In this document: positions 12,228-24,405 of the stretch, piece by piece
Layout of the letters: each line of letters begins with the position of its first letter
Numbering within the stretch: the stretch's first letter is position 1
Assembly (NCBI GenBank): GCA_002415345.1
Contig: DHXV01000002.1
Coordinates: 1-39,398, forward strand
Source: Patescibacteria group bacterium UBA5147
GTDB taxonomy: Bacteria > Patescibacteriota > Saccharimonadia > UBA4664
Direction of reading: 5' to 3'
DNA length: 39,398 bases
The notes under the pieces: model-generated
Told to the model about the DNA's origin: nothing
What the model saw: the letters and a program-made list of their open reading frames with translations, nothing else
Databases searched by the model: none
Made by a program: the position numbers and the translations under genes

Positions 12228-12267
12228 ATCACCATTTCCAGCCCCAAGCAGCCCGGAAAGGTTTCCG

Positions 12268-12759
12268 TTGAAAACTCGCATCAAGCTCGTTGTCTGGGTA
12301 CTGCTGGGGGTGACATCCGTTTCCCTGGTGGTGCTTGCAGCCGTCGGCCTCCGCACCCAGCGTTACTACGCCGTCCAAACCGGCTCCATGACCCCAACCA
12401 TCCCATCGAAGAGTTTGGTGGTAGTGGAGCCAGGCCGGTACCAACTGGGACAGCCGATTTCGTTCCATCAGCATGGCGGCATCGTGACCCATCGATTTGT
12501 GGGCCTCAACGCCGACGGCACGCTCGTCACCAAAGGCGATGCCAACCGCACGCCTGACCCGTCAAGCGTCAGCCCGGCTGACGTTATCGGCGGCGTCATT
12601 GCCGCCCCCAAATATCTCGGCTACTGGCTGATGTATTTCAAGAGCCCGCTCGGTTTCGCCTCGTTCGTCGTGGACGTCCTGCTGATCTACCAGATCTCAG
12701 CCCTGTTCTCCAGCGAGGACACCAAGCCCGTACTCAAGACCGCTTTACAACCTGCCTAA
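12268..12759 (+). CDS. sipW: Signal peptidase I, SipW/archaeal type (S26B)
   Basis: 163 aa with TTG start and SD GAAAGG. N-terminal TM, catalytic-Ser box QTGSMTPTI, VTHRF, KGDAN, C-terminal TM. Typical SipW architecture. Confidence 0.8.
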   Translation: MKTRIKLVVWVLLGVTSVSLVVLAAVGLRTQRYYAVQTGSMTPTIPSKSLVVVEPGRYQLGQPISFHQHGGIVTHRFVGLNADGTLVTKGDANRTPDPSSVSPADVIGGVIAAPKYLGYWLMYFKSPLGFASFVVDVLLIYQISALFSSEDTKPVLKTALQPA

Positions 12760-12768
12760 CGGCCAAAA

Positions 12769-12806
12769 CCCCATTCGTGAATTTCGCGAGTGGGGTTCGT
12801 TATTTT
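12769..12806 (+). terminator. Rho-independent terminator after sipW
   Basis: CCCCATTCG (12769-12777) pairs with CGAGTGGGG (12787-12795), followed by TTCGTTATTTT. Confidence 0.7.
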
Positions 12807-12884
12807 AAAAAGAAGCCCCCCTCCGCACGAGGCGAAGAAGGGCTCCTTAACAAGATTGATCCGGGGAAAGTGGGAGGTTGGAGG

Positions 12885-13166
12885 TCAGCTGCGGAATGCG
12901 GCGGCCAGACCCAGAATCACAGATATGAGGCCGGCAACGGAGATCACGGACACCAGAGTGTGGTACTGGTCTGACGTCATGGCTGATGAGAACATCGGCG
13001 CGATGTAGACCAGCGCCAAAGCGAGCAGGATTCCTACGGCAATGCATACCGCGGAGATGAGACCTTGCTTCACCTCTTTGACTTGTTGGGCCTGGCGGGC
13101 CCTGAAGGGTGCAAGGTCGAGGTTGGCTTGGGCAAAGCGGTCGACTGGGACCTGGGAGTCAGGCAC
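12885..13166 (-). CDS. Small membrane protein (2 TM), unknown function
   Basis: The ORF track begins at TTG 13241, but that codon lies inside a perfect promoter. The most plausible start is the in-frame GTG at 13166 after GGAGGA. Two hydrophobic helices. Confidence 0.45.
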   Translation of the reverse strand: MPDSQVPVDRFAQANLDLAPFRARQAQQVKEVKQGLISAVCIAVGILLALALVYIAPMFSSAMTSDQYHTLVSVISVAGLISVILGLAAAFRS

Positions 13167-13212
13167 GGTTCCTCCATAGGCGAAAGGGATCAAGTTGTTA
13201 AGGATGCCTACT

Positions 13213-13241
13213 ATTGTATACCACTTGCGCTTATATGTCAA
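13213..13241 (-). promoter_or_regulatory. sigma70-type promoter TTGACA-17-TACAAT
   Basis: Minus strand reads TTGACA tataagcgcaagtggta TACAAT. It overlaps the nominal 5' end of the 12885..13241 ORF. Confidence 0.65.
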
Positions 13242-13337
13242 TAGGAAAGCTAGTAACTATGAGTTGGCTGCAAAATTGATTATTATCTTTCGCCAGCTAT
13301 AATTTAAGCAGAACCGTAATCACCTAGGAGAATTGCC

Positions 13338-13871
13338 ATGCCCGAAGGACAACCAGAAGGCCCCCGCGGAGGGGAAGAAAAATTTGAGGCAAACAGTAAT
13401 CGAGCTGAGGCCATGGCTTACGAGATGAACGCGGATACGACCCTAGCCAACAACGCCGATAAAATGCCAGGACTTGAGGCGCTAGCCGCGGAATTGCTCC
13501 AAACGGCAGATCAGCTGGGAAAAGAGGCTGGGCAGATTTTCGATAGGGACGAACTAGCCGCCAACCAATGGGTCGCCCAACAAGCCATAGCGACCTCGGT
13601 CTTCATTAACGACGGCAGCCGGGACACACTCAAAATGTTAGGTGGCAAAAATGTCTCACCGGCGCTTGAACTGGCGATATACAAATTTTACGGCCTGGTT
13701 GGCGCCAAGCCACCAACGCATGAAGCACGTCAGCTTGCAGCCAGCGATCAGACGGCATTGATTAATCCCGCCCAGCTGGGTCTTTACGTATCAGAGCGAT
13801 GGCAAAAGGACGAGAGCGGAACAGTAGCTCTCACGATGGAGCTGTCAAAACAGGAACCGCAAGAGCAATAA
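13338..13871 (+). CDS. Hypothetical protein
   Basis: 177-aa ORF. SD AGGAGA 7 nt upstream of the ATG. No motif recognised. Confidence 0.55.
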   Translation: MPEGQPEGPRGGEEKFEANSNRAEAMAYEMNADTTLANNADKMPGLEALAAELLQTADQLGKEAGQIFDRDELAANQWVAQQAIATSVFINDGSRDTLKMLGGKNVSPALELAIYKFYGLVGAKPPTHEARQLAASDQTALINPAQLGLYVSERWQKDESGTVALTMELSKQEPQEQ

Positions 13872-14016
13872 CCCTGACTCGGTTCTTGCGGGGTTTTCAC
13901 TTTGTGAATTCTCAACTCCCTAAAAACACTCTTTAGAATGTACTTGGGGAGTGCCGGGAAAGGACAGGGGACATTGCGTCACCTTTTCCTTTCCCGGAAA
14001 CTCTCTGTTGCTGGCC

Positions 14017-14511
14017 CTAGACCACGAACCACGAACCTCGCGTTTCCGGGTCGGCATTGTGTCGGCGAAGCGCCTCGGTTTCTGCACATGTGCAGGCGTG
14101 GGCCGGTTGGCCGCAAATGCCTTGGCAGATGTCGTCATCATCAGTCCTGCAGATGCACTGGCTTTTCAGCTGTTCGCATTCGTTGCAGTATTCAAAATGA
14201 TCACCGACAACATGGGAGAAGCTACGAATTTCGTAGCAGCCCGGAACGATGCAGAAGCTGTCCATGAGCTCGTCAAGGTGGTGCTTATCGGCTTCAAGCC
14301 GGTGCGCTTCCTCTGCGAGTTGGTATTCCGCTTCGATTTGGGCGTAAAAAGCGGCATCTTCGGCAGCCTCCCTCGCCATCTCTTCGGACCATGCGAGTTG
14401 ATCTTGCACGACGCAGCGCTTGTGGATGGTGGCCTTCAGAACCGGTTTACCGCACCACCAGCACATTGAAAAGCCGAGCTTACTAAGGAAGTTAAGGATG
14501 ACGATGCGCAT
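14017..14511 (-). CDS. Cys-rich hypothetical protein (N-terminal CxxC...HxxC zinc-ribbon-like, acidic coiled middle, C-terminal Cys cluster)
   Basis: 164 aa. Strong SD AAGGAG 7 nt upstream of the ATG at 14511. Preferred over the antisense 13951..14469 ORF, which has no SD and poor composition. Confidence 0.55.
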   Translation of the reverse strand: MRIVILNFLSKLGFSMCWWCGKPVLKATIHKRCVVQDQLAWSEEMAREAAEDAAFYAQIEAEYQLAEEAHRLEADKHHLDELMDSFCIVPGCYEIRSFSHVVGDHFEYCNECEQLKSQCICRTDDDDICQGICGQPAHACTCAETEALRRHNADPETRGSWFVV

Positions 14512-14673
14512 AGTGCTGCTCCTTCGGGTCGAGTCCGTGAGAATGGGGGATGGGGCAAATCAGAGAGTTTGTGAATGAACCTCGGAGGCGGGTTATCGCC
14601 TCAGCGAAGTGAGAATATGTTAGCATAAACGTAATGCTTTGTCAATCTTTCAAACAGCGTACAATGGCCGTAT

Positions 14674-15096
14674 ATGCTCAACCTTCTCATCCTCGAAGAC
14701 AACCTAGCCGTGCTTTCGGCGCTCATGACCGAGCTCGCCCTGCTTGAGCAAAAATTCAGGAATGGCCCCCAGCCTGGCCAAAATATCGCCGTGACCGTCT
14801 ACTCAACCTACACCGACGTCGAGCGCATCGTGAACTCCCAAGCCGCCAACCACTATGACGTAATCTTACTCGACCGGGACTGCAAGCTGGGCGGTTCGTT
14901 CCACGCCCTCGACATCGAGAAATTCGGCGCCGACAAGGTAATCGCCATTTCCATGGTTCCCGAATACAACCAAGAGGCCGCGGCCCGCGGAGTTACCCGC
15001 GTGGTTGATAAGGACTATCTCGATCTGCCCGGGTTCGCGTGGCAGGTAGGACAGCATATACGGGAAATGGTTCATGAATATCCAGCAGAAGTATAA
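14674..15096 (+). CDS. Stand-alone CheY-like receiver domain protein
   Basis: 140 aa. LLILEDN acidic pocket, VILLDRD candidate phospho-acceptor, later AIS and DK positions. No output domain and no kinase nearby. TACAAT lies 8 nt before the ATG, so the gene is likely leaderless. Confidence 0.6.
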   Translation: MLNLLILEDNLAVLSALMTELALLEQKFRNGPQPGQNIAVTVYSTYTDVERIVNSQAANHYDVILLDRDCKLGGSFHALDIEKFGADKVIAISMVPEYNQEAAARGVTRVVDKDYLDLPGFAWQVGQHIREMVHEYPAEV

Positions 15097-15116
15097 GTAT
15101 TGTCTCATCCAAACTG

Positions 15117-15146
15117 TTGCGGGAAGAAATATTTTTGGCGTACAAT
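15117..15146 (+). promoter_or_regulatory. Candidate promoter TTGCGG-18-TACAAT driving the riboswitch
   Basis: -35-like TTGCGG at 15117-15122 and -10 TACAAT at 15141-15146. The aptamer starts about 15-20 nt downstream. Confidence 0.5.
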
Positions 15147-15160
15147 GTAATTGTTAACAA

Positions 15161-15298
15161 CTTAGTATCAAGAGTGCAGCGAGAGTACTAGCTCAATGAC
15201 CTGCCGGCAACCTACCGCAAGATAAGGTGCTAAGCCTAGCCCGCAAGGGAAGGATGCAGACGTATAAATCCTTTCCTAAGCAGAAGGGATATTTTTAT
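15161..15298 (+). promoter_or_regulatory. SAM-I-type riboswitch: aptamer (15161-15260) plus antiterminator/terminator expression platform (15247-15298)
   Basis: Core read by eye: GTATC-AAGAG-TGCAGCGAGAG...AATGACCTGCC-GGCAACC...AAGGTGCTAA...CCC-GCAA-GGG...GATGC. Pseudoknot TAGC/GCTA. GGGAAGGAT (15247-55) is complementary to ATCCTTTCC (15268-76). Terminator stem 15268-75/15283-90 followed by ATTTTTAT. Confidence 0.8.
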
Positions 15299-15355
15299 GC
15301 AAAAATGATTGATTCCGAACAAAAACCGTACTAAGATAATTCCGTAAGTCGGTTC

Positions 15356-15384
15356 TTGAAACAAATAAACATAACAGGTATATT
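15356..15384 (+). promoter_or_regulatory. Candidate internal promoter TTGAAA-17-TATATT between the riboswitch terminator and dcm
   Basis: TTGAAA (15356-61), a 17-nt spacer, then TATATT (15379-84), 22 nt upstream of the dcm ATG. Confidence 0.45.
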
Positions 15385-15406
15385 ATATCTAACAAGTGGG
15401 GGCGAT

Positions 15407-16459
15407 ATGGGTTCAATAGCTGCAACATTGGTTGCCGATAATTTTAAAACAATGCTGGATGGCATTCAAAGACCGGAGGTTGGCTATAAGCCTCTGACCG
15501 CCGTCTCGCTTTTTAGTGGAGGGGGCGGTCTCGACCTTGGACTAGAAGCAGCAGGCTTTCATGTTGCGTACGCTTCAGATATAGAGCCTCCACATTGTTT
15601 AACACTTAGTGCCAACTTTCCTTCATGCTATGTAGAAGTTGCGGATGTAAATCAGCAAAAAGGAAGTGATATTATAGAGAAAGCCAATGTCGGTGAAATT
15701 GATCTACTTGCAGGCGGCCCACCCTGCCAATCCTTTAGTATCCTTGGAAAGCGCATGGCCTTAGATGATCCTCGAGGAAAACTGGTTTACGAGTATGCTC
15801 GCATCGTCAAAGAGCTTCGGCCTCGGGCATTCGTGTTCGAGAATGTTCCCGGCATACTAACTGTGAACAAGGGTATGGAGTGGAGGGCTCTGTTGGATTT
15901 TATGGCCGAGAGTACTGGGTACAAAATATACTATCAAGTTTTGAACTCCGTAAACTATGGAGCACCCCAAATTCGCAAACGAGTTTTTATGGTTGGATTC
16001 AGAGATCAGAATGAGTTTACGTTTCCTATGCCGACTCATGGACCGACTCAACTAGGGACTTTAAACAGCCTCATTCCCTGGGCAACCGCCAAAGAGGGTC
16101 TCGAAGGAGTTGAGGCCCTACATAATCATAGAATCCGCCCTCACGGTGAAAGAGTAAAGAGTCGATACATGACAGTAGAACCAGGAGGCCGCGATAAAAT
16201 AGATCACACTGATAGGCTGCATCCCGATCGGCCCTCGGGGACAGTTATTGTAGGGTCAAGAGGCGGTGGAGGGAGACCGTTTATCCATTTTTCCGCACCA
16301 AGACACCTCACTGTACGCGAAGCCGCTCGCCTTCAAACTTTTCCTGATTGGTTCAAATTCGAAAGTACAGAAACCTGGCAGTATAGAGCCGTTGGGAATG
16401 CTGTTCCTGTCTTTATGGCACGTGCAGTTGGCAAACAGATAGCTCTTGCCTTACAATAG
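15407..16459 (+). CDS. dcm: DNA (cytosine-5)-methyltransferase
   Basis: Motif I FSGGGGLDLG, motif IV GGPPCQSFS, motif VI ENV, motif VIII QIRKRVF, motif X GNAVPV. ATG at 15407 with SD-like GTGGGGG. The ORF-track TTG at 15356 lies inside a promoter-like element. Confidence 0.92.
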   Translation: MGSIAATLVADNFKTMLDGIQRPEVGYKPLTAVSLFSGGGGLDLGLEAAGFHVAYASDIEPPHCLTLSANFPSCYVEVADVNQQKGSDIIEKANVGEIDLLAGGPPCQSFSILGKRMALDDPRGKLVYEYARIVKELRPRAFVFENVPGILTVNKGMEWRALLDFMAESTGYKIYYQVLNSVNYGAPQIRKRVFMVGFRDQNEFTFPMPTHGPTQLGTLNSLIPWATAKEGLEGVEALHNHRIRPHGERVKSRYMTVEPGGRDKIDHTDRLHPDRPSGTVIVGSRGGGGRPFIHFSAPRHLTVREAARLQTFPDWFKFESTETWQYRAVGNAVPVFMARAVGKQIALALQ

Positions 16460-16464
16460 GACAA

Positions 16465-17949
16465 ATGCAACCTAATTACCCTTACGAAGGCTATTCGTGG
16501 TCGATGAATCAGCACATAGGACCAGCGACCGATAAATTAGTTATGCTCTCACTCCTGGAAGCCGCTCAGGAATTCGGTAGATCTAATAATCCTGGCGATA
16601 ACATCACAAAAGCGCTAGGTGAGCGCGGTATATTGACACCGAATATACGGGCAGATGCTGGAAAGGCGCAAACTTGGCGAGATTATCAGCAGGTGCTTTC
16701 TGAGCTAGGTCTAATATTCTCGACCAGGTTCACAGAGAATGTAGTCGTAACGCCCATGGGTCTAATGTGGCTAGATGGCATTCTGGGATTTTCAGAGTTG
16801 ATGGCCACTCAGGCATTTCGGTACCAGTATCCTAACGGACATAAACTCACAATCCCGCCTCGAACGCGAGGGGATCTGTCCTTAACGACGAGTATCCCAG
16901 AAACCCGAACTGAACTTGATGATATATCTGGCGTCGCAATTAAGCCTGCTGTACTTATTCTGAGGCTACTCCTAGAGGGCATGAAAGACTCTCTGTCATT
17001 GACAGTAGACCAATGTGTAGGAGCATTAATGCCATTGAAAAAAAATTCTGATTGGAGAGTAGCTCAATCAAATCTCGATGTAGTATTCGGTAAGTTGGAT
17101 CAAAACCGGCGCAGACATGTTCAAGAGTGGTATCGGCTACTTGCTCGGACTGGCATTTTTATTGCTACTTCGAGAGGAATTACATTAACTGAAAACGCTA
17201 AAGAGCTTAAGCTGGAGCTGGAGAGTCTTTGCGAATATCACGAAAATGTAGCAAATTTCTGGAAGCCTCAGTCCTATACCAGGCAGGATATGGCAGGCTC
17301 CTGGAGCAAATTTTATAGTAACCCAAATATTGACACACAATGGGCTGCCCCAGTTTCTGCGCTGACTCAAGAGTTCGTTGCTCAGAACTATCCTATGGGA
17401 ATCGATCTAGCCGACCAAACTGCACTACCAAACCAGGTTCGTAAATGGAGCGAAAATATCAGTCTCCGAGAAGTAAGAAGTAGCCCGATCGAGGTAACAG
17501 AATATGAACCAGGCCAAATAAACTTAGGAAATTTGGCGCTAGGCTATGAGAGACGACGGGAGATGACGTTGCTACACGACGTCGTTGTTTTGTCCGTTGC
17601 AAATAGGCTTAAAGATCAAGGATATGTAGTTCAGGAAGATCCATCATCGGTCGATATACTGGCAATAAAAAATGGTCATGAAATTATATTCGAGATAAAG
17701 ACCGTAAATATACGCTCATTGCCCGGGAGAATAAGACTAGGGGTAGGTCAGCTAAGCGAATATAGATATCGAAGAGAGCTGTCAACACATAACCGACCCA
17801 AAACGGGCTTAATTATCAGTGGAGTTGCTTCAATTCCCGAATGGGTAATTAGCTATTTTAATGATGAGCTAAACATGAGTCTCGTAGCCTATAACGGTGA
17901 TGGGGAGTTTGTAAAATATACTAGTATTGGCCTAGAATCATTATTTTAA
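16465..17949 (+). CDS. Putative type II restriction endonuclease (C-terminal PD-(D/E)XK core), cognate to the Dcm
   Basis: 494 aa, starting 5 nt after the dcm stop. C-terminal VDILAIKNGHEIIFEIKT fits a D...E-x-K nuclease motif. The N-terminal region vaguely recalls AlwI-family enzymes (unverified). Confidence 0.65.
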   Translation: MQPNYPYEGYSWSMNQHIGPATDKLVMLSLLEAAQEFGRSNNPGDNITKALGERGILTPNIRADAGKAQTWRDYQQVLSELGLIFSTRFTENVVVTPMGLMWLDGILGFSELMATQAFRYQYPNGHKLTIPPRTRGDLSLTTSIPETRTELDDISGVAIKPAVLILRLLLEGMKDSLSLTVDQCVGALMPLKKNSDWRVAQSNLDVVFGKLDQNRRRHVQEWYRLLARTGIFIATSRGITLTENAKELKLELESLCEYHENVANFWKPQSYTRQDMAGSWSKFYSNPNIDTQWAAPVSALTQEFVAQNYPMGIDLADQTALPNQVRKWSENISLREVRSSPIEVTEYEPGQINLGNLALGYERRREMTLLHDVVVLSVANRLKDQGYVVQEDPSSVDILAIKNGHEIIFEIKTVNIRSLPGRIRLGVGQLSEYRYRRELSTHNRPKTGLIISGVASIPEWVISYFNDELNMSLVAYNGDGEFVKYTSIGLESLF

Positions 17950-18014
17950 GAGACCAACACCCTCCCTTGAGGTAGAAAAAAACTATAGCAACACATCTCT
18001 CCAAATCCGACTAT

Positions 18015-19162
18015 ATGCTTGACCTCCGCCATCCAGCCTGGCTCTGGTTAAAGAAACACGACAAGACAAAACACCCGCCTGTTGATGACCGCACCCAGGC
18101 CATGTTCGATGCCGGCCACGATTTTGAGCCGTATGCGGAAACCCTCTTTCCCGGAGGAGAAACGCTTGGTTTTGCCGACTACAAAGAATACCTGAGCCTA
18201 CCGAAGCGAACTCAAGAGGCTCTGGACTCCGGCGTAATCACGATCTTTCAAGGCCGATTCGAATACGGGCAACTCACGTTTATCTGCGATGTTATAACCG
18301 TCGTTGGCGACAAAGAAATCGACCTGTACGAAATCAAATCTAGCACCAAAGCCAAGCCGGACCATGAGTTTGATTTGGCGTTTCAAATGGTGGTTCTTGA
18401 GGGCTGCGGATTCACGGTTCGTAATATTGCTGTCGTGCACGTCAATAATCAATATGTCCGCCATGGCGCCATTGATCCGGCCGAACTCACCACTATTACC
18501 GATATCACCGAGACAGTTAAGGCCTTGCGTGAGCAGACTTTGCAGCATGTGGAGGCTGCCCTGAAAGTGGCCGGCTCCCGAACCATTCCCGATATCTCGC
18601 CCTCTCTGGCGCGGCTTGGTTCGTTTAGTGATTGGGTAGGTATTTATCGCGGGCTTACAACCGTCGAACCGGAGAGTATTTATGACTTATGCTCGATCGG
18701 CGCGGAGGATACCGGCCAGTTGGAGGCGCTTGGCATTACCAGACTGGCTGATATTCCTGATGATTTTCCGCTCTCCTCCAAGCAGCAGCTTCAAGTTCAG
18801 GCCACCAAGCAGAACAAGGTTTTGATTCAGGCCGACAAGATTGCCAAGTACCTGGGCAGTTTTACCTATCCGCTGTATTTCTTTGACTACGAAACCATGT
18901 CGAGCCTGGTGCCGTACTTTGATGGCATGCGGCCGTATCAGCAGGTGCCGTTTCAGTACTCGCTGCATATCCTGGACGCCCCCGGCGCCGAGCTCAGACA
19001 CGTCGAATATCTCCACCGCGACAACTCCAACCCCGCCGAGCCATTGAGCCGGGCTTTGAAGTCCCACATTGGCGAGACGGGTTCGGTCATCACTTGGAAC
19101 ATGAGCTTTGAGATGGGCTGCAATACTACCCTAGGGCAGCTGGTTCCGGAATACGCCGAGTT
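18015..19162 (+). pseudogene. DUF2779-family (PD-(D/E)XK + RNase H-like exonuclease) gene, 5' part, interrupted by an IS
   Basis: LYEIKSSTK nuclease-like motif, YFFDYET and TWNMSFE exonuclease-like motifs. The native frame continues exactly at 21802 once the IS and one TSD copy are removed. The upstream in-frame LSKSDY lacks a canonical start. Confidence 0.8.
19155..19162. repeat. Target-site duplication GCCGAGTT (left copy)
   Basis: An identical 8-mer occurs at 21802-21809, immediately outside the two inverted repeats. Confidence 0.85.
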
Positions 19163-19174
19163 GGGACTTATCCC

Positions 19175-19203
19175 TTGACAACAAGTAGTTTATTTGATAC
19201 ACT
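19175..19203 (+). promoter_or_regulatory. Transposase promoter inside the left IR: TTGACA-17-TACACT, with the ATG 6 nt downstream (leaderless)
   Basis: TTGACA (19175-80), a 17-nt spacer, TACACT (19198-203), ATG at 19210. Confidence 0.6.
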
Positions 19204-19209
19204 TAGAGC

Positions 19210-20058
19210 ATGAAGTTCACCATGAAGCAGTTTAATGACCGTTTTCCTACCTCAGACGCTTGTCTAGAGGAGCTGAAGCAACTACGGTTCGCTGACTTCG
19301 CGTGTCCCAACTGTGACAGCTCGAAACTCTACAAAGTTAAAGGCCGTTCCATGTACGCCTCACCCTGCGGTTTCCAAGTGGCTCCCTTGTCTGGAACAAT
19401 CTTCCACAAGTCCTCAACCGATCTCCGCACTTGGTTTTTGACTATCTTCCTCATGACCACTACCCGTTCAGGCGTATCCGCTAAGACTGTGGAACGTATG
19501 ACAGGCGTGACTTATAAGACCGCTTGGCGCATGTGTAACCAAATCCGTACTCTCATGCAAGACGGTGGCGACCTCCTTACGGGCGTTGTAGAGGTCGATG
19601 AGACCTATTTCCAAGCTAACCCACGCAAGGACAGCCGATTGCCCAAGGGCAAGCGTACAGGCGAGGCTGGTATCGTTCTGGGAATGGCTGAAGTGGGCGG
19701 TCGGGTTCGGGTGCGCCGAGTACCTAATTCGGGGCTTGGTATGCTCGACCACGTTTACGAGAACGTCAGCAAGTCAGCTATTATCCACACGGACGGTTGG
19801 TTGGCTTACAAGAAGTTACCCAAAATGGGCTACACTCACGCAGTGGTTGACCACTCTATCGGCCAGCACGTTGTAGATGGTGTTGGGACGCAGAACATTG
19901 ACGGGTTTTGGAATAATCTGAAGCGTGGCGTTTATGGGGTGTACCGTCACTGTGAGCCGAAGTATCTTGAGAGCTATGCTAATGAGTATGCTTGGCGGTA
20001 TTCAAACTGTAATAGTGGAGTTCCGATGTTCGAGTTATTGCTGAGTAAAGTTGCTTAA
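19210..20058 (+). CDS. IS1595-family (ISXO2-like) DDE transposase with N-terminal zinc ribbon
   Basis: 282 aa. CPNC...C zinc-ribbon, then VEVDETYF and IHTDGWLAYK DDE-type motifs and ...NIDGFWNNLKRG...Y..EY.WRY, typical of IS1595 transposases. Confidence 0.88.
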   Translation: MKFTMKQFNDRFPTSDACLEELKQLRFADFACPNCDSSKLYKVKGRSMYASPCGFQVAPLSGTIFHKSSTDLRTWFLTIFLMTTTRSGVSAKTVERMTGVTYKTAWRMCNQIRTLMQDGGDLLTGVVEVDETYFQANPRKDSRLPKGKRTGEAGIVLGMAEVGGRVRVRRVPNSGLGMLDHVYENVSKSAIIHTDGWLAYKKLPKMGYTHAVVDHSIGQHVVDGVGTQNIDGFWNNLKRGVYGVYRHCEPKYLESYANEYAWRYSNCNSGVPMFELLLSKVA

Positions 20059-20242
20059 TCTGTTAAATGAGAGTACAAAGTAGTTATGAATAAGTTACTA
20101 CAGACCTAACTTCTGCAGGAACCTCTTTTGTGTTGCAATTGTTATACGTTTGTACTACAATTTAGTTACAAATGACTCGCTTTCCGAATTGTCACCGTAT
20201 GGTGTGCGTGTCTGGGACAACCAGACTAGGAGGCGGGTTTTT

Positions 20243-20863
20243 TTATTTGAAGTACCAAATATCTTCAATACGATCAGGGATTACTCCGAGATAATCACGT
20301 GAATCTGTCTTAGTCTGCGTAGTTCTGAAAATCGCTCCAGCTACCATGTCAGCCAATTGAATAAGATTATCGCTTTTAGAGTCAACAAACTTCATGTCTT
20401 TTATAACGCCGCCGCGGGGATTAGCTTGCTGACGGAAATAAGCAGCAGCAGTCTTTTTATACAACTTGTCACCATGTCCATCTAATCGAATACTAGCGTT
20501 TTTGATTTTTCCTGCATTGTTTGAAAGTACTTGTTTAATCATGTAATTATAAAACTTGTCTTGCTTACTTTGTAGCTCTGGACTCCTGATTATGGCTTTG
20601 TTTGCCACAATTGCTCGCACACGAAAATTGGAGGTTTTAACCACCTCAAGGAAATCTAGCCGAATTTTCTTAGTTGCTTTATTAAATTTGAATTCGTGTT
20701 CGTCACGCCAATTCAACGAGCGACGTAATCGTTTTATTTTGAGTGCCGTTTCTTCCGCATCTAAATTATCATCGAAAATTACGCAGGCGATTACAAAATG
20801 CGCACTCGATCCTTTATCCAATTTAAAACCAGCGTCTCCGGAATCATCTATAAAAACCAGCAT
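20243..20863 (-). CDS. DUF3800 domain protein (passenger gene)
   Basis: 206 aa. N-terminal MLVFIDDSGD, HEFKF, C-terminal LIQLADMVAGAI. These are the conserved blocks of DUF3800 as I recall them. Confidence 0.8.
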   Translation of the reverse strand: MLVFIDDSGDAGFKLDKGSSAHFVIACVIFDDNLDAEETALKIKRLRRSLNWRDEHEFKFNKATKKIRLDFLEVVKTSNFRVRAIVANKAIIRSPELQSKQDKFYNYMIKQVLSNNAGKIKNASIRLDGHGDKLYKKTAAAYFRQQANPRGGVIKDMKFVDSKSDNLIQLADMVAGAIFRTTQTKTDSRDYLGVIPDRIEDIWYFK

Positions 20864-23532: not shown

Positions 23533-23700
23533 GTTGCATCACGGCCTTTGATTGTGGCGAAGGTACGATTAACAAAACTAATTCTGCAGTAATTTAGCAA
23601 CAAAGTCAAGATTAAATTATGCCTTGGTACCATGGAGCGGAAATATATTAGGTGCTAAGCTAATGCTAGATACAGAAAAAACGCAACTGACAGGAGATTT

Positions 23701-24405
23701 ATGGCAGCACCCACGGCCCTTCGCGCGAGCGAAGTCGTTAAGACATATGGCAAAGGCGAGAGTTTATTTACGGCGCTCGGGGGCGTTTCCATCGACATCC
23801 GCAGCGGCGAGTCCGTCGCTATTATCGGCAAGAGCGGTTCCGGCAAGAGCACGCTGATGCACCTGTTGGCGCTGCTGGATGAGCCGAGTTCCGGCAGTAT
23901 CGCGATAGACGGGCAGGAGGCGGCGGGCCTGAAGAACAAGGAGCTCAATGCTCTGCGCAACCATAAATTCGGTTTTGTCTTTCAGCAATTCTTTCTGAAC
24001 GGCAATGCCACCGTGTTGGAAAACGTCATTCTGCCGCTCAAAATCGCCGGCATCGGCCGGGCCGAGCGCCATCGTCGGGCCCATGAGGCTTTGGCTAAAG
24101 TGGAGCTTGACGATAAGTCGGGGAGCAAGGCCAAGGACTTGAGCGGCGGGCAGAAGCAGCGCGTGGTCATCGCGCGCGCCCTGGTCGGCGAGCCGGCCAT
24201 TATCTTTGCCGACGAGCCCACCGGTAACCTGGATTCCTCGACTGGCGCCCTCATTGAGAGGCTGCTGTTTGACCTCAACAAGCAACATGGCATCACCTTG
24301 ATTGTCGTGACCCACGACCCGGATCTGGCTGAGCGTTGCGACCGTCAGATTCATCTTAAAGACGGCCTAATCGTGCCCGCCACCCCCGGAAAGGTCCGCG
24401 TTTAA
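23701..24405 (+). CDS. ABC transporter ATP-binding protein (MacB/LolD/FtsE-like)
   Basis: Walker A GKSGSGKST, signature LSGGQKQRVVIARAL, Walker B IIFADEPTGNLD, H-loop VTHD. Confidence 0.92.
   Translation: MAAPTALRASEVVKTYGKGESLFTALGGVSIDIRSGESVAIIGKSGSGKSTLMHLLALLDEPSSGSIAIDGQEAAGLKNKELNALRNHKFGFVFQQFFLNGNATVLENVILPLKIAGIGRAERHRRAHEALAKVELDDKSGSKAKDLSGGQKQRVVIARALVGEPAIIFADEPTGNLDSSTGALIERLLFDLNKQHGITLIVVTHDPDLAERCDRQIHLKDGLIVPATPGKVRV

Follow-up and report, generated by a model that had tools for sequence, protein, structure and literature searches.

A SAM-I riboswitch at the head of a predicted Type II restriction-modification operon on a strain-variable island of a Patescibacteria genome

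The window analysed here, a stretch of 39,398 nucleotides (nt) from Patescibacteria group bacterium UBA5147 (assembly GCA_002415345.1, contig DHXV01000002.1, positions 1 to 39,398 of the forward strand), carries an S-adenosylmethionine (SAM) riboswitch of the SAM-I (S-box) class upstream of a Type II restriction-modification (R-M) operon, both located on a strain-variable island. In the textbook view SAM riboswitches exert feedback control over the supply of methionine and SAM, and an S-box is expected to be followed by a sulfur amino-acid or SAM gene. Here it is followed instead by a dcm-type cytosine-5 (C5) DNA methyltransferase gene and, beginning 5 nt past the dcm stop codon, by an open reading frame (ORF) for a putative restriction nuclease. 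This direct and co-oriented arrangement had been proposed in an earlier note on the same DNA, and is confirmed by the PF00145 domain of the gene starting at 15407 and by the position of its partner. The element is a new member of the SAM-I class, and its association with R-M genes, if functional, would constitute a new riboswitch use; the pairing may tie DNA defence to the level of the methyl donor, or be an accident of island shuffling.

Comparison of the whole window with Rfam 15 returned RF00162 with a score of 50.4 bits (E 8e-9) against a gathering score of 44.4, aligned uncut over its full length (model positions 1–108), and, under clan competition across all of Rfam, as the best family of clan CL00012 at 15162–15260. 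A complete SAM-I core had been read from the letters at 15161–15260 in the earlier note, which proposed the covariance-model check that now bears it out. Indeed, P1, the AAGAG of junction J1/2, P2 with its GA/UGA internal loop, GGCAACC, P3 with a GCAA loop, GGUGCUAA and the CCC-GCAA-GGG of P4 are all in place, and standard pairing holds for 28 of the model's 30 pairs. Mismatches occur in P1 (A-A) and P3 (C-A), the former at a position that is mismatched in the leaders of two metK genes (on contigs L244 and L285, described below) as well, and both P3 and P4 are unusually short. Non-consensus pairs in P2 (C16-G42, A17-U41 and A23-U32, aptamer numbering) are changed on both strands, and in a set of six SAM-I sequences including that of the window pairing extends to 93.8% of cells and 16 pairs are doubly changed, a degree of pairing and covariation matched by none of 500 shuffles. 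In the consensus alignment the residues of the ligand pocket are all present, namely the A-U and U-A pairs of P1, the AAGAG of J1/2, and the A and U of GCAAC/GGUGC in P3, whose roles are those known from the Thermoanaerobacter tengcongensis structure.

The pseudoknot helix is 91.7% paired in the same six sequences, with three of its four pairs doubly changed, and the window has A15190-U15237 where the consensus has G-C. Its 3' arm differs from the one initially put forward, GCUA at 15228–15231, which the model assigns to P3; homology with the model and with the other SAM-I sequences identifies CUAG at 15236–15239 as the true partner of the P2 loop. The aptamer is structurally intact, and the element is probably a ligand-responsive riboswitch that binds SAM.

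Two Logan contigs from different sequencing runs (L005 and L010) both start exactly at 15226, inside the aptamer, a position that could mark a branch of the de Bruijn graph and hence a second sequence in the samples sharing the 3' half of the riboswitch. In addition, the J3/4 motif ATAAGGTGCTAAGC (15222–15235) resembles ATTAGGTGCTAAGC (23647–23660) in 13 of 14 nt, the latter copy lying just upstream of an ABC transporter ATPase gene at 23701 that is the first gene past the island. A split or duplicated riboswitch at the far island end was considered and rejected, there being no Rfam match in that place even at E 10, and the repeat was taken as chance, its alignment being equalled in 22 of 500 and 70 of 500 shuffles.

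Downstream of the aptamer, a terminator scan found ATCCTTTC-CTAAGCA-GAAGGGAT at 15268–15290, followed by ATTTTTAT, and folding of the unliganded leader placed an antiterminator of 10 bp, one of them G-U, in both the minimum-energy structure and the centroid. The 61-nt segment 15240–15300 folds with -17.3 kcal/mol (z -2.6), the antiterminator helix alone with -13.3 kcal/mol and the terminator hairpin with its flanks with -10.0 kcal/mol. Since the antiterminator draws its 5' arm from the 3' strands of both P4 and P1, stabilisation of P1/P4 by SAM would exclude the antiterminator and free the terminator, and by predicted pairing, from scan and folding alike, the two structures are mutually exclusive. 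As modelled, the layout is that of a classical S-box OFF expression platform, in agreement with the earlier note, which had counted 9 bp for the antiterminator.

The promoters are less clear-cut. The putative promoter ahead of the riboswitch (TTGCGG-18-TACAAT), which was read from the sequence, scores under the cut-off of the promoter scan, and that part of the original description is not upheld. The element TTGAAA-17-TATATT between the terminator and dcm does pass the scan, with 10 of 12 consensus matches, and may be an independent dcm promoter; it stands as a pattern match only, in an AT-rich region where 4 promoter-like sites were found against 1.2 expected from shuffles. Neither a same-strand ORF of at least 60 aa nor a terminator-like site was found in the interval between terminator and dcm, and the spacer (15261–15420) showed no homology to the upstream regions of other dcm genes. 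Coordinates of these features and of the neighbouring genes are collected in Table 1.

Table 1. Positions of the riboswitch, the R-M operon and associated features in the window.
Feature	Position	Strand	Basis or detail
Left junction of strain-variable island	15069/15070	.	comparison with contig L011
Putative riboswitch promoter, TTGCGG-18-TACAAT	15117–15146	+	inferred by reading the sequence; weak -35
SAM-I (S-box) aptamer	15162–15260	+	RF00162 covariance-model match
Aptamer helices	P1 15162–69/15253–60; P2 15174–15205; P3 15206–15231; P4 15235–15252	+
Pseudoknot, P2-loop arm CUAG	15188–15191	+	pairs with CUAG 15236–39
Pseudoknot, 3' arm CUAG between J3/4 and P4	15236–15239	+
Predicted antiterminator helix	15246–15277	+	AGGGAAGGAU 15246–55 pairs with AUCCUUUCCU 15268–77
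Predicted intrinsic terminator	15268–15298	+	stem ATCCTTTC/GAAGGGAT of 8 bp, 7-nt loop, then ATTTTTAT
Promoter-like TTGAAA-17-TATATT	15356–15384	+	scan; 22 nt before dcm start
C5 cytosine DNA methyltransferase gene (dcm type)	15407–16459	+	PF00145, E 1e-70; TIGR00675
Candidate cognate restriction endonuclease gene	16465–17949	+	494 aa, PD-(D/E)xK C-terminal domain
DUF2779/Cas4-like nuclease gene	18015–19178	+	Pfam; island cargo
IS1595-family transposase gene	19210–20058	+	Pfam; island cargo

The FxGxG, PCQ and ENV motif positions of the dcm product are invariant in the alignment, and its nearest homologues, from diverse phyla, are at most 62% identical. The partner protein itself matches no Pfam or other family, and a search for solved relatives gave none; D397, E410 and K412 are invariant across 29 of its homologues, some of which match RE_AlwI or BpuJI_N weakly. 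These homologues are located on the same contigs as methylase homologues. In 136 of the 145 loci fetched with the nuclease profile dcm lies directly upstream on the same strand, and on the Nostoc plasmid pCENA543e a gene labelled 'DNA cytosine methyltransferase' is followed by a 41%-identical nuclease homologue. Judged by these comparisons, dcm and its partner appear to form a conserved, widespread and mobile Type II methylase-then-nuclease module, in which the 494-residue protein would supply the nuclease activity. The idea that the nuclease gene is a pseudogene in some samples, raised by differing gene calls, was discarded because the contigs are 100% identical over 15000–20100. In the three closest R-M homologues the nuclease gene is followed by a gene for an HhH-GPD glycosylase (L367 5027–5758, L368 5039–5767, L369 2658–3392), a likely repair partner for deamination of 5-methylcytosine, in the place where the window has its DUF2779/Cas4-like gene.

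Riboswitch and R-M operon share the variable side of a strain break. A co-occurring strain is represented by contig L011, which matches window positions 12267–15069 at 99.4% identity and has nothing in common with the window thereafter. The putative -35 follows 47 nt after the break, so that promoter, riboswitch, terminator and R-M operon all fall on the variable side. Guanine-cytosine (GC) content falls from 0.587 at 14700–14999 to 0.450 at 15000–15299, and is 0.41–0.49 in the riboswitch/R-M segment against about 0.59 in the flanking chromosome. The riboswitch had been described as lying exactly at the GC break that opens the island; the drop in GC is real, but the strain break places the riboswitch inside the island. 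Further cargo comprises the DUF2779/Cas4-like and IS1595 transposase genes and a DUF3800 gene with a DUF3800-IX RNA, and the GC content of 18015–20058 (0.50–0.56) is unlike that of the R-M segment, an unevenness that marks the island as a mosaic. Over the block 15000–20100, contigs of this uncultured bacterium from several independent permafrost metagenome samples show 100% identity. No SAM match was found in the 215 nt available past the break in the sister strain (L011, L012), and in more distant relatives an overlapping gene, missing in the window, comes after the upstream 134-aa gene. Together, the strain break and the gene order of the relatives argue that the riboswitch is not a resident chromosomal element left in place by a downstream insertion.

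The upstream gene itself, a conserved hypothetical gene (14674–15096), encodes 140 aa in the window and 134 aa in the relatives (L011 2413–2817, L286 1255–1659, and also L012), a difference explained by the island junction replacing its last codons. The contigs of these related strains (L011, L012 and L286) all end within about 215 nt past this gene, suggesting a hotspot of strain variation at this site. Within the same island, downstream of the IS1595 transposase gene, the DUF3800-IX RNA (RF02968, 69 bits) at 20174–20243 on the forward strand abuts the stop codon of the DUF3800 gene, which occupies 20243–20863 on the reverse strand.

Relatives of the riboswitch were sought by a pattern scan of IMG/VR followed by covariance models, which revealed bona fide SAM-I elements on several contigs with Rfam scores of 56–71 bits. 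Such elements on viral contigs precede metK, metN or a small uncharacterised protein, and none precedes a DNA methylase. Under a model derived from the window, the closest riboswitches found are those of IMGVR_UViG_3300000230_000014 (L244, 79.8 bits) and IMGVR_UViG_3300009692_000052 (L285, 69.8 bits), the others scoring 31–50 bits. Their aptamers are 79–81% identical to that of the window and have the same bulged U in P2, their leaders follow the same antiterminator/terminator design, and both precede a short metK (311–332 aa) with the Pfam S-AdoMet_synt N, M and C domains. The genes of L285 (191–11597) encode helicase/RE_AlwI-like, N6/N4 methylase, C5 methylase, NOV_C, DUF3644, PDDEXK_1 and T5orf172 products. 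This island adjoins an integrase, with riboswitch and metK closing the run of defence genes, and in L244 (695–3952) the neighbours of metK are PDDEXK_1 and SLATT_4. From their gene content, mobile defence islands appear to carry SAM supply genes under SAM-I control, and such metK islands are a plausible source of the leader found in the window.

No genes common to the window and the islands of L244 and L285 were found beyond a generic similarity of C5 methylases, and in global alignments with the metK leaders the similarity ends after the U-run. Direct derivation from one of these two leaders was tried and abandoned, the similarity of the flanks not being significant and control leaders scoring equally, as was a metK remnant downstream of the terminator, for which a tblastn search of the window with the L244 MetK protein found nothing at E 10. 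The small protein mentioned above is unannotated, has about 91–106 aa and follows SAM-I and a terminator on at least six IMG/VR contigs (L240 2434–2557, L213 4200–4286, L265 574–690 and L377 3554–3641, with 56–61 Rfam bits, and also L269 and L276). One example begins MRTIRQLINLEKKVYIFLKN...IRIDYEKYI, two members tested gave no Pfam match, and the protein may serve an uncharacterised SAM-related phage function.

Whether the association recurs was surveyed in the 145 homologous R-M loci (about 0.8 Mb; 120 of them with at least 300 nt upstream of dcm), using a relaxed SAM-I motif and two covariance models, the first derived from the window aptamer and the second from the six SAM-I sequences. An aptamer resembling SAM-I was found beside R-M genes in one other locus, CALCDZ010000001.1 (L033, stored a second time as L101), which comes from a genome bin of an uncultured bacterium and represents an unrelated high-GC host. 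There, RF00162 matches at 838–988 with 42.0 bits (E 5e-8, Rfam in E-value mode), just under the cut-off of 44.4, and is followed by a terminator (995–1018, 10 bp and a T-run) whose 5' arm can pair with GGAAGA of the aptamer. A 415-nt spacer, in which a sigma-70-like site was not found, then leads to a dcm gene (50% identical to that of the window) and a homologous nuclease gene (about 36%). This is the sole SAM-I match in the homologous loci, and it stands in leader position; the chance of that position, on the right strand, given a single match is about 5% (120 loci times about 600 nt, over about 1.6 million strand-positions), which is suggestive and not decisive. Inheritance of the riboswitch with the R-M family was rejected, neither covariance model nor the relaxed motif finding any case besides L033, and weak matches in L130, L044 and L051 were set aside as noise. 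Upstream of the L033 riboswitch (1–640) an apparent frameshifted gene fragment is followed by a perfect palindrome, CGCCCACCCTCACGGGTGGGCG, at 619–640, and this neighbourhood too seems degraded or mosaic. The survey yielded one independent recurrence, the association being missing from the other homologous loci, and these occurrences suggest that the fusion of riboswitch and R-M operon is lineage-specific, rare and secondary. That it is secondary and confined to certain lineages follows from the R-M family being normally without a riboswitch, and from the nearest riboswitch relatives controlling metK.

We consider it an even chance that read-through into the R-M operon is gated by an intact, secondarily recruited SAM-OFF attenuator, alongside a possible internal promoter. 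Transcription would begin near 15150 or enter from the gene upstream. With SAM abundant, P1 and P4 would be locked, leaving AUCCUUUCC free to form the terminator, and transcription would stop near 15298; with SAM scarce, GGGAAGGAU would pair with AUCCUUUCC as the antiterminator, and the polymerase would read a further 108 nt into dcm and on through the nuclease gene. The internal promoter at 15356–15384, if active, would provide a basal level independent of SAM. The analysis establishes the aptamer, the alternative helices, what the genes are, their place on the island, the rarity of the pairing and its one recurrence, while SAM binding, termination, read-through into dcm and any benefit to the cell are inferred. 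SAM is the cofactor of the methylase, and L285 offers the example of a mobile R-M island with a riboswitch-controlled metK of its own, so that such control is plausible. Riboswitch and operon also share the same side of the strain break and a similarly low GC content, and the independent second case in L033 keeps the regulatory interpretation alive.

Several observations weigh against control of the operon by the riboswitch. SAM-I is absent from 144 of the 145 fetched related loci, L033 being the exception; the second model found no riboswitch at the three closest homologues of the window's gene pair, which were fetched separately; and SAM-I occurs at none of 80 phage C5-methylase loci. Owing to the good promoter-like site between the terminator and dcm, the latter may not depend on read-through at all, and chance juxtaposition is credible in a mosaic island with an IS1595 transposase. 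The two aptamers linked to R-M genes are the lowest-scoring SAM-I elements seen (50.4 and 42.0 bits against 56–71), and the population copies, being all identical, provide no evidence of selection since the fusion. Nor is it obvious that a joint rise of nuclease and methylase at low SAM would be protective. The earlier note had suggested that more methyltransferase at scarce SAM would avoid self-restriction, a logic that is weakened and incomplete, since the nuclease is co-transcribed and would rise too. Control of the operon as a selected function would be a step further: the recurrence in L033 keeps it in play, while the absence of SAM-I from the other homologous loci and the promoter-like site speak against it.

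Quite possible, though somewhat short of an even chance, is that the element is an orphan, an intact leader captured from a metK-type or other methionine or SAM gene through rearrangement or deletion of an island, with the R-M genes running from their own promoter at 15356–15384 and any SAM-dependent read-through incidental and unselected. The normal lack of riboswitches in the R-M family agrees with this, as does the identity of the best non-self matches, the metK leaders of L244 and L285, which are surrounded by defence and R-M genes and adjoin an integrase; deletion of metK from such an island would yield the very layout of the window. The promoter-like site before dcm, the mosaic island with its transposase and uneven GC, and the low Rfam scores of both R-M-linked aptamers are likewise in keeping with capture. 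However, aptamer, pseudoknot, antiterminator and terminator show no decay, a metK remnant is not detectable in the window, outside the aptamer the resemblance to the metK leaders is not significant and no greater than for control leaders, and the layout recurs independently in L033, where an internal promoter-like site was not found. The suggestion that the riboswitch is the remnant of a displaced locus survives in modified form through the metK leaders, the nearest riboswitch relatives found; however, neither metK nor a piece of it was found in the window, and within the 215 nt available the riboswitch is not resident at this site in the sister strain.

Bolder, and in our judgement unlikely, is the proposal that SAM-I was recruited at least twice independently, coupling a SAM-independent Type II nuclease and its methylase to the methyl-donor pool as a defence guard, such that a drop in SAM, through starvation or through SAM-destroying phage enzymes, would derepress the R-M operon; the riboswitch would then serve as a metabolic guard and not for biosynthetic feedback. 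A look-alike or decayed aptamer, which passes the covariance model and has lost SAM binding, is very improbable: the score is just 6 bits over the cut-off, P3 and P4 are shortened and P1 and P3 contain the A-A and C-A mismatches, yet the conserved junction and core residues are all present, the departures in P2 and the pseudoknot are compensated, the mismatched P1 position is likewise mismatched in the metK leaders of L244 and L285, and the expression platform is coherent. Least credible is a trans-acting or stand-alone SAM-sensing small RNA, with the terminated transcript of about 140 nt as the product and the R-M operon irrelevant, since for all that the unit appears self-contained (putative promoter and terminator within about 180 nt) and that terminated SAM riboswitch transcripts of Listeria, SreA and SreB, act in trans (as cited in PMC5399841), a target is neither known nor predicted, nothing sets the element apart from an ordinary cis-acting leader, and it sits on a recently acquired island.

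Should gating of the R-M operon by the riboswitch be real, riboswitch control would extend to genome defence and mobile elements, and the availability of the methyl donor would be connected directly, and testably, with the balance between methylation and restriction, a balance that bears on self-restriction, on R-M addiction and on phage strategies that deplete SAM. Should the element be an orphan, it would be a clean example of intact regulatory RNAs being shuffled within defence islands. The riboswitch-controlled metK genes on R-M and defence islands, for their part, point to such elements managing their own SAM supply. In a riboswitch regulon study of 255 genomes the SAM riboswitch controls methionine metabolism, and the words methyltransferase, methylase and restriction do not appear in its main text (PMC3766115). 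No report pairing SAM riboswitches with R-M systems or DNA methyltransferases was found in the full-text literature, whose coverage was incomplete so that this is absence of evidence only, and no such R-M association was found in the full-text literature on SAM riboswitches in candidate-phyla bacteria.

The window element resembles other members of SAM-I (RF00162) in its four-way junction of P1–P4, its P2 internal loop and its pseudoknot joining the P2 loop to the J3/4-P4 segment, in the conserved AUCAAGAG, GGCAACC and GGUGCUAA, and in its predicted terminator/antiterminator OFF platform. Known examples are the yitJ, metE and metK leaders of Bacillus subtilis and the metF aptamer of T. tengcongensis. 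The window element departs from the SAM-I norm in that its downstream genes are those of a Type II R-M system and not of methionine, cysteine or SAM synthesis or transport, in its very short P3 and P4, in the A-U for G-C of its pseudoknot, and in its place on a strain-specific mobile island. With the metK leaders of L244 and L285 it has in common the aptamer sequence, the OFF design and the defence/R-M setting, but those leaders control metK. With L033 it shares gene order, orientation, R-M family and OFF-switch layout, whereas in the L033 aptamer P3 and P4 are extended by long GC-rich insertions and the AA of J3/4 is missing. Phage anti-restriction enzymes that degrade SAM, such as the SAM hydrolase/lyase of T3, also make the SAM pool matter for the outcome of restriction and modification; unlike the riboswitch they are proteins on the phage side and not a sensor on the side of defence, and they are relevant only to the speculative guard role considered above. 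The controller (C) proteins of Type II R-M systems (C.PvuII, C.AhdI and C.Esp1396I) bind DNA through a helix-turn-helix and respond to their own concentration; a C-protein gene was not found in the window by ORF list and Pfam. Like these proteins, the riboswitch would be a dedicated regulator at the 5' end of an R-M operon, setting the timing and level of methylase and nuclease, but here the candidate regulator is an RNA, and what it would sense is the methyl donor.

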